From the NCBI RefSeq assembly GCF_030013205.1, contig NZ_CP122648.1: DNA of 64,000 nt; one strand, given 5' to 3'. A model generated the notes under the pieces. The model was not told the origin of the DNA, ran no database searches, and saw nothing but the letters and a program-made list of their open reading frames with translations. Made by a program: the position numbers and the translations under genes. The DNA is from Escherichia coli (GTDB taxonomy: Bacteria; Pseudomonadota; Gammaproteobacteria; Enterobacterales; Enterobacteriaceae). Positions 40,364 through 41,998 of this stretch are shown piece after piece (the stretch's first letter is position 1; the number at the start of each line of letters is the position of its first letter).

Positions 40364-40724
40364 AAAGTCCTGTCCAGAAAGAAGTCGGCCTCGCAAAAAT
40401 GAATAAACCCAGTTTCTCTTGCGCAACAGGTGGAGAAGTCGAATACGCAGTATGTAAAAAATGAGGCAACAGATTCACTGGGGAGGTCGCGAGGAGGCGC
40501 AATTCTACAAAATTGCGCATTTCACTACCAGTCTGGAGTCAGCTCGGATATGAACTGCAACTATTGCAAATAAAGAAATTAAGCTGGAAGGCATCGCGCA
40601 ATGAGGAAGATTGCCGGGTGCTGACGGTAAAAAGCAATCGTAAAATCAGCGGCAAGCCGGAAAGGTTCCGGTGAGGCGCAATGTTGCGGGGGCTTAATCC
40701 CTGGTGGCATTGGTTGCTGGAGAG

Positions 40725-40790
40725 AGAAAACCCCCGCACGTTGCAGGTATGCACCTGACAACATCACGGGGGCTAATCTTGAACCTAGAC
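40725..40790 (-). ncRNA. rdlD: Rdl-type antisense RNA (antitoxin), copy 1; position inferred
   Basis: Placed 49 to 114 bp upstream of the ldr start on the opposite strand by analogy with K-12 ldrD/rdlD geometry (from memory); not independently verified. Confidence 0.35.
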
Positions 40791-40838
40791 CACTCAAGAA
40801 TAGCCGCGAAACGTTGTCATTACAACACAGGCGGCTAT

Positions 40839-40946
40839 ATGACGCTCGCAGAACTGGGCATGGCCTTCTGGCATGATTTAGCGGCTCCGGTCATTGCTGG
40901 CATTCTTGCCAGCATGATCGTGAACTGGCTGAATAAGCGGAAGTAA
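40839..40946 (+). CDS. ldrD: Ldr-family small toxic peptide (35 aa), copy 1
   Basis: MTLAELGMAFWHDLAAPVIAGILASMIVNWLNKRK; LdrD-type sequence. Confidence 0.75.
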   Translation: MTLAELGMAFWHDLAAPVIAGILASMIVNWLNKRK

Positions 40947-41207
40947 CGTGTCAGACGGGCGTCAGGCTGCCGTAATGGCAAGTTGCGTCCGGATCAGGCC
41001 GCAGGGATAAAACTCTGCGGCCTTTTTCGTAAGAAAAATGCAACGGTTGCAAGCGGATAATATTCTGCGGAATGCGCAGCACAGAGTGAAGACGTGACGG
41101 ATTCCGGAACAGAAAAACAGTCGTAGAATCAGCGGCAAGCCGGAAAGGTTCCGGTGAGGCGCAATGTTGCGGGGGCTTTATCCCTGGTGGCATTGGTTGC
41201 TGGAGAG

Positions 41208-41273
41208 AGAAAACCCCCGCACGTTGCAGGTATGCACCTGACAACACCACGGGGGCCATTCTTGCATCCAAAC
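41208..41273 (-). ncRNA. Rdl-type antisense RNA, copy 2; position inferred
   Basis: Same geometry as copy 1 within the second repeat unit. Confidence 0.35.
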
Positions 41274-41321
41274 AATACAAGAATAGCCGCGAAACGTTGT
41301 CATTACAACAGAGGCGGCTAT

Positions 41322-41429
41322 ATGACGCTCGCAGAGCTGGGCATGGCCTTCTGGCATGATTTAGCGGCTCCGGTCATTGCTGGCATTCTTGCCAGCATGA
41401 TCGTGAACTGGCTGAATAAGCGGAAGTAA
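41322..41429 (+). CDS. Ldr-family small toxic peptide (35 aa), copy 2
   Basis: Identical peptide to copy 1. Confidence 0.75.
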   Translation: MTLAELGMAFWHDLAAPVIAGILASMIVNWLNKRK

Positions 41430-41690
41430 CGTGTCAGACGGGCGTCAGGCTGCCGTAATGGCAATTTGCGCCCGGACCAGGCCGCAGGGATAAAACTCTG
41501 CGGCCTTTTTCGTAAGAAAAATGCAACGGTTGCAAGCGGATAATATTCTGCGGAATGCGCAGCACAGAGTGAAGAAGTGATGGATTCCGGAACAGAAAAA
41601 CAGTCGTAGAATCAGCGGCAAGCCGGAAAGGTTCCGGTGAGGCGCAATGTTGCGGGGGCTTAATCCCTGGTGGCATTGGTTGCTGGAGAG

Positions 41691-41756
41691 AGAAAACCCC
41701 CGCACGTTGCAGGTATGCACCTGACAACACCACGGGGGCCATTCTTGCATCTAGAC
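41691..41756 (-). ncRNA. Rdl-type antisense RNA, copy 3; position inferred
   Basis: Same geometry as copy 1 within the third repeat unit. Confidence 0.35.
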
Positions 41757-41804
41757 CATTCAAGAATAGCCGCGAAATGTTGTCATTACAACACAGGCGG
41801 CTAT

Positions 41805-41912
41805 ATGACGCTCGCAGAACTGGGCATGGCCTTCTGGCATGATTTAGCGGCTCCGGTCATTGCTGGCATTCTTGCCAGTATGATCATGAACTGGCTGAAC
41901 AAGCGGAAGTAA
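41805..41912 (+). CDS. Ldr-family small toxic peptide (35 aa), copy 3 (Val28Met variant)
   Basis: MTLAELGMAFWHDLAAPVIAGILASMIMNWLNKRK. Confidence 0.7.
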   Translation: MTLAELGMAFWHDLAAPVIAGILASMIMNWLNKRK

Positions 41913-41998
41913 CGTGTCATGCGGGCGTCAGGCTGCCGTAATGGCAATTTGCGCCCGGACCAGGCCGCAGGGGTGAAACTCTGCGGCCTTTTTCGTTC

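Follow-up and report, generated by a model that had tools for sequence, protein, structure and literature searches.

Organization of the ldr/rdl Array between yhjV and bcsG

The window (the whole stretch of 64,000 nucleotides of Escherichia coli DNA that was analysed) carries, between yhjV and a 3' fragment of bcsG, a tandem array of three LdrD-type Ldr/Rdl toxin–antitoxin units. Each of them consists of an ldr toxin ORF, a 25-codon leader ORF upstream of it, and an rdl gene on the opposite strand, and consecutive units are separated by an 85-nt spacer. The features of the region are as follows:

39092-40363, minus strand: yhjV, the left flank (RefSeq annotation of the identical record NZ_CP122643.1)
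40630-41996, plus strand: the whole array of three LdrD-type LDR units (483, 483 and 401 bp, with no spacer in the last)
40681-40758, 41164-41241 and 41647-41724, plus strand: 25-codon leader ORF (MLRGLNPWWHWLLERENPRTLQVCT), in all three units
40725-40790, minus strand: rdl copy 1 (RF01813, 90.4 bits; fold -31.7 kcal/mol, z = -4.9)
41208-41273, minus strand: rdl copy 2 (RF01813, 81.7 bits; fold -30.1 kcal/mol)
41691-41756, minus strand: rdl copy 3 (RF01813, 81.8 bits; fold -30.1 kcal/mol)
40839-40946, plus strand: ldr copy 1, 35 aa, MTLAELGMAFWHDLAAPVIAGILASMIVNWLNKRK, WP_001295224.1 (ORF scan and RefSeq annotation)
41322-41429, plus strand: ldr copy 2, peptide identical to that of copy 1 (ORF scan and RefSeq annotation)
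41805-41912, plus strand: ldr copy 3, V28M (...SMIMNWLNKRK), WP_001521561.1 (ORF scan, RefSeq annotation and Pfam)
40996-41030, 41479-41513 and 41962-41996, plus strand: intrinsic terminators of the ldr mRNAs (11-bp stem with 8 GC pairs, then a T run)
41028-41112, plus strand: 85-nt inter-unit spacer 1, with the palindrome TGCAACGGTTGCA; absent from single-copy loci
41511-41595, plus strand: 85-nt inter-unit spacer 2
41999-42841, minus strand: 3' fragment of bcsG, the right flank, annotated as a partial pseudogene and fused to a bcsC fragment
from 42826: the bcsC fragment fused to the bcsG 3' fragment, annotated as a partial pseudogene

The original prediction, which had been made from the sequence of the window, described three head-to-tail units with a 483-bp period, and the repeat analysis agreed with it. 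TRF reported a tandem array at 40630-41996 on the plus strand, with a period of 483, 2.8 copies, 95% matches and 0 indels, and a repeat search found three head-to-tail copies with a start-to-start spacing of exactly 483 and 483 bp. In pairwise alignments the units were 95.0-96.3% identical to each other. Each unit was said to contain a 35-codon Ldr ORF with Rdl opposite its leader, which was borne out by the ORF scan, Pfam and RF01813, and the flanking genes named were those annotated at 39092-40363 (yhjV) and 41999-42841 (the bcsG fragment). The description held in all its particulars, with a refinement of the ORF coordinates alone. In all three units the toxin ORF, the leader ORF, the stem-loop of Rdl and the terminators are intact.

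The array region is 100% identical to that of the porcine ETEC strain ETEC4079 (NZ_CP122643.1). In all, 11 complete genomes, assembled independently of one another, matched a 5-kb region here at 99.8-100% identity and have three Ldr genes annotated at this place, and the possibility that the triplication is an assembly artefact was rejected on these grounds.

All three toxin ORFs bear the name 'toxin Ldr family protein' in RefSeq. The copy-3 peptide, on which the Pfam test was run and from which the peptides of copies 1 and 2 differ by one residue, matched PF13940 (Ldr_toxin) with E=2e-25, its residues 1-35 aligning with positions 1-35 of the model. An NCBIfam scan of two Ldr peptides and the leader ORF returned no family. 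The Val to Met change that had been noticed in copy 3 is real (V28M), and the V28M peptide is also the sole Ldr at the yhjV-bcsG locus of W13-16, a wild boar strain of serotype O139:H1.

The covariance search for rdl gave three matches to RF01813 (rdlD), all of them full-length (1-66) and above the gathering score of 50. In every unit Rdl is encoded across from the 5' leader of ldr; its 5' end precedes the ldr ATG by 49 nt (e.g., 40790 versus 40839), and neither the RBS nor the start codon is covered by it. The predicted fold of each copy is a stable, long terminator stem-loop, with about 11-16 nt left free as a 5' tail. The scores of rdl 2 and rdl 3 are lower by about 9 bits than that of rdl 1, and the alignment indicated that only the variable 5' tail is responsible for this drop.

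Six terminator-like sites, one for ldr and one for rdl in each unit, were seen in the region, versus 1.6 expected by chance. A simple consensus scan of the region for sigma-70 promoters found none, with no site reaching 9 of 12 matches. Two -10-like hexamers, TAAAAT and TAGAAT, occur at unit positions 12-17, at the same place in all units.

Inter-Unit Spacer and Leader ORF

The first ~62 nt of the spacer are nearly invariant among the 23 spacers that were compared. No counterpart of the spacer was detectable in the K-12 ldrD locus, in the ldrABC spacer or in the two flanks of the array in the window, where the local alignment scores were 13-19, as compared with a mean of 17.8 and a maximum of 26 for the shuffled spacer. 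When one genome per species was searched for exact matches to a 22-mer of the spacer, a search that diverged arrays of other Escherichia or Salmonella species could escape, it was found only in Escherichia sp. E1V33 and in a contaminant, the latter being a 503-bp low-coverage contig in a 'Bacillus sp.' assembly.

The leader ORF was compared in a set of 37 units from 14 genomes. It is one of two variants differing by one residue (N6 or Y6) in 30 of the 37 units, and is one further substitution away in 5 more. No segment of the unit varies less than the portion of this ORF that rdl does not overlap (unit positions 52-95; pi = 0.014). A hok/sok-like coupling of ldrD to a leader ORF, designated ldrX, has been proposed but not proven (PMC4147584), and the 25-codon ORF at 40681-40758 is a candidate for this proposed ldrX. 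The ldr leaders scored 26-30 bits with the sok model RF01794, and as the gathering score of this model is 59, their membership in the hok/sok family was rejected. The sub-threshold scores suggest that the layout may be similar to that of hok/sok, and the low variability of the leader ORF together with these weak scores would be consistent with a hok/sok-like leader.

Comparison with Known Ldr/Rdl Loci

With the K-12 ldrD locus the units of the window share 94.8-97.3% identity, and with K-12 ldrABC only 80-82%. All three are of the LdrD type and lie between yhjV and bcsG. The array had been identified in the original prediction as a triplicated LdrD-type type I toxin–antitoxin module, and both the identity values and the flanks proved this assignment to be correct. 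The K-12 loci also agreed with the accompanying statement that K-12 has a single ldrD/rdlD pair at this locus and ldrABC elsewhere.

The single ldrD/rdlD pair of K-12 MG1655 was reportedly described as LDR-D by Kawano et al. in 2002. It is similar to the units of the window in its locus, family, ORF, Rdl stem-loop and terminators, with a nucleotide identity of 95-97%. However, the K-12 locus consists of one unit without a spacer, whereas the window has three units with spacers, and the third residue is Phe in LdrD of K-12 but Leu in the Ldr of the window. The ldrABC/rdlABC genes of K-12 belong to the same family and are likewise organized as three head-to-tail tandem modules, but they are located between kdsA and chaA, have a period of 535 bp and an unrelated spacer, and encode peptides of another subgroup (MTLAQFAM...).

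Kim et al. (2017) described three pairs of ldrD and rdlD in E. coli BL21(DE3), located between bcsG and yhjV (PMC5435950), and the transcriptome-based re-annotation of this strain, which presents the locus in Figure 3B, includes three RdlD RNAs (PMC5435950). The triple of this B strain and that of the window occupy the same locus, and both have three units, a 483-bp period and an 85-nt spacer. Units 1 and 2 of BL21 encode the same peptide as units 1 and 2 of the window. In contrast, unit 3 encodes a K-12-type LdrD (Phe3) in BL21 and the V28M peptide in the window, the Rdl tails of units 1 and 3 differ between them, and bcsG is intact in BL21 but a fragment in the window. The three-unit array was thus already known, being published for BL21(DE3) and annotated in RefSeq. 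In a broader survey, Fozo et al. (2010) distinguished LdrD and LdrB groups and described the evolution of Ldr loci via lineage-specific tandem duplication and loss, with Ldr counts of 2 to 10 in the genomes of Escherichia, Shigella and Salmonella (PMC2887945).

Copy Number of the Array in E. coli

The number of units at the yhjV-bcsG locus was assessed in 5,426 complete E. coli genomes, with only the two flanks used as queries. The flank pieces were joined only if the gap between them did not exceed half of the query length plus 500 bases, and queries of increasing length thus gave a cumulative distribution of gap sizes:

400-nt flank query, gaps up to 1 unit (433 bp): 2,095 genomes joined
1,300-nt flank query, gaps up to 2 units: 2,630 genomes joined
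2,300-nt flank query, gaps up to 3 units: 4,471 genomes joined
6,000-nt flank query, gaps up to ~7 units (within 3.5 kb): 5,334 genomes joined

In the calibration of this method, joined rows with gaps of 433, 916 and 1,399 bp corresponded to 1, 2 and 3 annotated Ldr genes, and the rows annotated 'Ldr x3' shared the 1,399-bp gap of the window. A 100%-identical sister of the window strain, which has a 1,399-bp gap, was unjoined with the 1,300-nt query and joined with the 2,300-nt query. The genomes are distributed among the copy-number states as follows:

1 unit: about 2,095 genomes (39%)
2 units: about 535 genomes (10%)
3 units: about 1,841 genomes (34%)
4 or more units: about 930 genomes (17%)

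Thus, 61% of complete E. coli genomes have two or more units at this locus. The same proportions were observed in a spread sample of 58 genomes, of which 22, 5, 19 and 10 had one, two, three and four units, respectively. In an independent count, the spacer, which occurs solely between units, was found in 3,304 of the 5,426 genomes, at 6,980 places (median 2 and maximum 4 per genome), as compared with 3,317 multi-copy genomes by the flank method, and the unit totals obtained in the two ways also agree. Copy number is inferred here from the gap length, so that rare loci with an IS or another insertion would be miscounted, but the 13-genome difference between the two counts bounds this error.

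Among the states of the locus in the species, three units rank second in frequency, and a single copy is a minority state. The original prediction implied that three copies are unusual and was, by its own terms, to be given up if they proved to be the common state of this locus in E. coli; this part of it has to be abandoned, as three units are present in 34% of the genomes and the BL21(DE3) triple between bcsG and yhjV was already in print (PMC5435950). With the multi-copy array as the majority state (61%), the K-12-centred expectation is corrected: three copies are nearly as common as one, and the difference from K-12 at yhjV-bcsG is not an anomaly.

Age of the Units and Changes in Their Number

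The 37 units of the comparison set form a mosaic, in which blocks of linked variants are common to units that occupy different positions in the array and come from distant strains, and the divergence among units within genomes equals that between genomes. The variant blocks specific to individual units of the window are also present in BL21, in ST131-like strains and in other distant strains. The units are 4-5% apart, whereas the orthologous flanks are 97-100% identical between lineages or phylogroups. As the units differ by more than the flanks do, and as their variant blocks recur in distant strains, the duplication must be old. The earlier remark that the copies have begun to diverge was therefore right as to the differences between the copies, but not as to the recent divergence that it implied.

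Another view of the array is offered by the sister strain W13-16. Its flanks are 100% identical to those of the window, and it has the same bcsG'-'bcsC junction, but only one unit. Base for base, this unit is identical to unit 1 of the window from the left flank up to about position 134, and to unit 3 from position 135 as far as the right flank. The single-copy locus of W13-16 is, to judge from these identities, a collapsed array with a unit-1/unit-3 chimera as its product, which bears out the prediction that the array changes in size by unequal recombination. The combination of the same bcs deletion with one chimeric unit in this strain indicates that the copy number shifts by unequal crossover, and that it does so independently of the bcs deletion. 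The K-12 unit, in turn, departs from a BL21-type unit 3 only at positions 5 and 8, where it has the bases of unit 1, and it is most simply explained as a unit-1/unit-3 chimera left by the collapse of a BL21-type triple. The collapse is favoured here, because the reverse would require that both the spacer and a 4-7% divergence arose within phylogroup A. An array of two units with a period of 483 and the same spacer is present in Escherichia sp. E1V33, which represents a separate species-level lineage.

A recent triplication of a K-12-like single ldrD/rdlD module in the ETEC lineage, with copies that are just starting to diverge, would account for the one copy in K-12, for the identity of the unit 1 and unit 2 peptides, and for the single residue by which the unit 3 peptide differs from them. 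Nevertheless, we consider it extremely improbable. It is at variance with the distance between the units as compared with that between the flanks, with the presence of the variant blocks in BL21, ST131-like and distant strains, and with the occurrence of three units in about 1,841 genomes of many lineages. Furthermore, a K-12-like locus cannot generate the spacer, as single-copy loci do not have it. Equally improbable is a single rearrangement event in which the array expanded and the adjacent bcsG-to-bcsC region was deleted. The end of the array at 41996 is close to the deletion junction, near 42826-42841, and a possible tie between the two had been raised on account of their proximity. However, collinearity with K-12 extends across the right boundary of the array and 843 bp into the flank, and in W13-16 the identical junction is combined with a single unit. 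In addition, six three-unit loci of strains outside this lineage were inspected, and all of them have bcsG-bcsF-bcsE intact, and about 1,800 genomes in which the spacing of the yhjV and bcsG flanks is normal have three units. A common origin of the array and the deletion can thus hardly be entertained, and the bcs deletion is, as these comparisons read, an event unrelated to the array.

Predicted Function of the Units

We conclude with high confidence that the region represents an ordinary allele of a locus polymorphic in copy number, with three complete LdrD-type Ldr/Rdl modules in tandem. Each 483-bp unit would encode an ldr mRNA that has a long 5' leader, specifies a hydrophobic toxin of 35 aa and ends at a terminator of its own, and the strand opposite the leader would give rise to an Rdl of ~66 nt. 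From the analogy with ldrD/rdlD of K-12, Rdl is expected to pair with the ldr leader and to block in this way the synthesis of Ldr, possibly via the leader ORF, as in hok/sok. The number of copies, from 1 to 5, drifts by unequal homologous recombination between old paralogous units. In K-12, the overproduction of LdrD is toxic and is counteracted by RdlD, which overlaps the long 5' UTR but not the RBS (PMC4147584). The Ldr alleles of the window are presumed, on the example of K-12 LdrD/RdlD, to be toxic as well and to be repressed by their cognate Rdl. Similarly, the transcriptome paper on BL21 suggests that ldr may be transcribed also in units 2 and 3, which are preceded by the spacer and not by the yhjV flank.

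It could be argued that one or two of the units are decaying, non-functional relics beside a single active module, as the consensus scan found no promoter, the upstream context of units 2 and 3 (the spacer) is different, and the Rfam scores of rdl 2 and rdl 3 are 9 bits under that of rdl 1. We find this very unlikely. The ORFs, Rdl stem-loops, terminators and leader ORFs have remained intact in every unit, and the lower Rfam scores stem only from the variable 5' tail. The TAAAAT and TAGAAT hexamers are retained at the same position in all units, and BL21(DE3), whose locus has the same architecture, is annotated with three RdlD RNAs on the basis of its transcriptome (PMC5435950).

Variability of the Rdl 5' Tail

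In the set of 37 units from 14 genomes, the diversity of the 18-nt 5' tail of Rdl (pi = 0.19) contrasted with that of every other segment of the unit (0.014-0.057). Among the less variable segments are the promoter zone of rdl and the 3' UTR, which is non-coding. The 37 units comprise ten tail haplotypes, and within each genome all tails are distinct from one another (permutation p = 0.005, uncorrected for paralogy and phylogeny). ORF sequences, unlike the Rdl tails, recur within genomes. The tails of the three Rdl copies in the window span 40773-40790, 41256-41273 and 41739-41756. Between Rdl1 and Rdl2 there are 7 differences, of which 6 fall in the tail; there are 5 between Rdl1 and Rdl3, and 2 between Rdl2 and Rdl3.

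The single-stranded tail is the likely nucleation site for the pairing of Rdl with its target. The predicted tail duplexes of the cognate pairs in the window have energies of -29 to -31 kcal/mol, as opposed to -7 kcal/mol for the non-cognate duplex of Rdl1 with ldr2 and -16 kcal/mol for that of Rdl1 with ldr3. Units 2 and 3 would still cross-react, with predicted duplexes of -21 and -28 kcal/mol (the latter for Rdl2 with ldr3).

A comparable arrangement is found in Ibs/Sib, which, like Ldr/Rdl, are multi-copy cis-antisense type I modules, and whose antitoxins differ mainly in short recognition segments (Han et al., 2010; PMC2943612). The sequences of Ibs/Sib are unrelated to those of Ldr/Rdl, and the discrimination between copies was shown for Sib/Ibs, whereas for Ldr/Rdl it is inferred here. 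Following this analogy, we tentatively put forward, as a less probable reading of the data, that selection might keep the tails distinct, with each Rdl mainly controlling its own ldr mRNA. The variability of the tail could equally reflect relaxed constraint, as complementarity is automatic when the antisense RNA is encoded in cis. A search of the literature for tests of Rdl cross-specificity found nothing relevant. The diversity of the Rdl tail, which suggests rather than shows a copy-specific control by the antitoxins, is the one thread of some research value. If this control operates, the array would be a set of partly insulated toxin–antitoxin switches, whose number and tail repertoire depend on the strain.

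Variable and conserved parts of the ldr array

Variation within the LDR-D unit was greatest, by a wide margin, in the 18-nt 5' tail of the Rdl antisense RNA, for which nucleotide diversity (pi) reached 0.19, compared with 0.014-0.057 elsewhere in the unit.

40773-40790, 41256-41273, 41739-41756, minus strand: 18-nt tails at the 5' end of Rdl

When the units of the window were compared with those in loci L004-L015 from other genomes, the tails were all distinct between the copies of one genome in every multi-copy genome sampled (11/11). Copy-specific recognition by the antitoxin may be the cause of this variability.

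Neighbouring units are separated by spacers.

41028-41112 and 41511-41595: inter-unit spacers, 85 nt

Across 23 spacers from 11 diverse genomes, nucleotides 1 to ~62 were almost unchanged, and this stretch was more conserved than most of the LDR-D unit. The spacer contains the palindrome TGCAACGGTTGCA. Neither the LDR loci of K-12 nor the sequences flanking the array held a detectable homologue of the spacer, which may carry the promoter of the ldr gene that follows it or a site that regulates this gene.

The ldr 5' leaders matched the Rfam sok model weakly, with scores of 26-30 bits, below the gathering score of 59.

40688-40841, 41171-41324, 41654-41807, plus strand: ldr 5' leaders, sub-threshold Rfam sok-model matches

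These scores are in line with the proposed hok/sok-like organisation of the leader.

The single unit of K-12

The K-12 ldrD unit (L002 3895-4325) was compared with units 1 and 3 of the BLR(DE3) array (L004), and is a chimera: positions 5 and 8 carry the bases of unit 1, and all other positions match the BL21-type unit 3. Given this chimeric sequence, the single-copy reference locus looks like a collapsed three-unit array.

The adjacent bcs deletion

41999-42841, minus strand: bcsG 3' fragment, annotated partial pseudogene
42826-45882, plus strand: bcsC fragment, fused to the bcsG 3' fragment, annotated partial pseudogene

The same bcsG-bcsC fusion junction was found in the wild-boar strain W13-16 (L009). 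Since the lineage of the window lacks bcsF, bcsE, bcsR, bcsQ, bcsA, bcsB and bcsZ, it should be cellulose-negative.

Other elements in the window and in other assemblies

In some strains, including CMZE123 (L015 2296-3922; also H227), an HTH/HipA-type type II toxin-antitoxin cassette is inserted between dppF and yhjV, adjoining a three-unit ldr array. An E. coli LDR-D spacer and an rdlD (90.4 bits) were also present on a 503-bp contig (NZ_JABWSY010000055.1; coverage 0.66) of a 'Bacillus sp.' assembly; this contig almost certainly reflects contamination of the assembly with E. coli DNA.

Elsewhere in the window, a further type I toxin-antitoxin element matched the Rfam sok model (RF01794) strongly, at 119.8 bits, next to the cspA 5' UTR, and an RtT-like pair (RF00391, 101 and 96 bits) lay downstream of tRNA-Pro(CGG).

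20279-20430 (plus) and 20713-21140 (minus): sok-model match and adjoining cspA thermoregulator 5' UTR
32337-32749, plus strand: tRNA-Pro(CGG), then two tandem RtT-like elements
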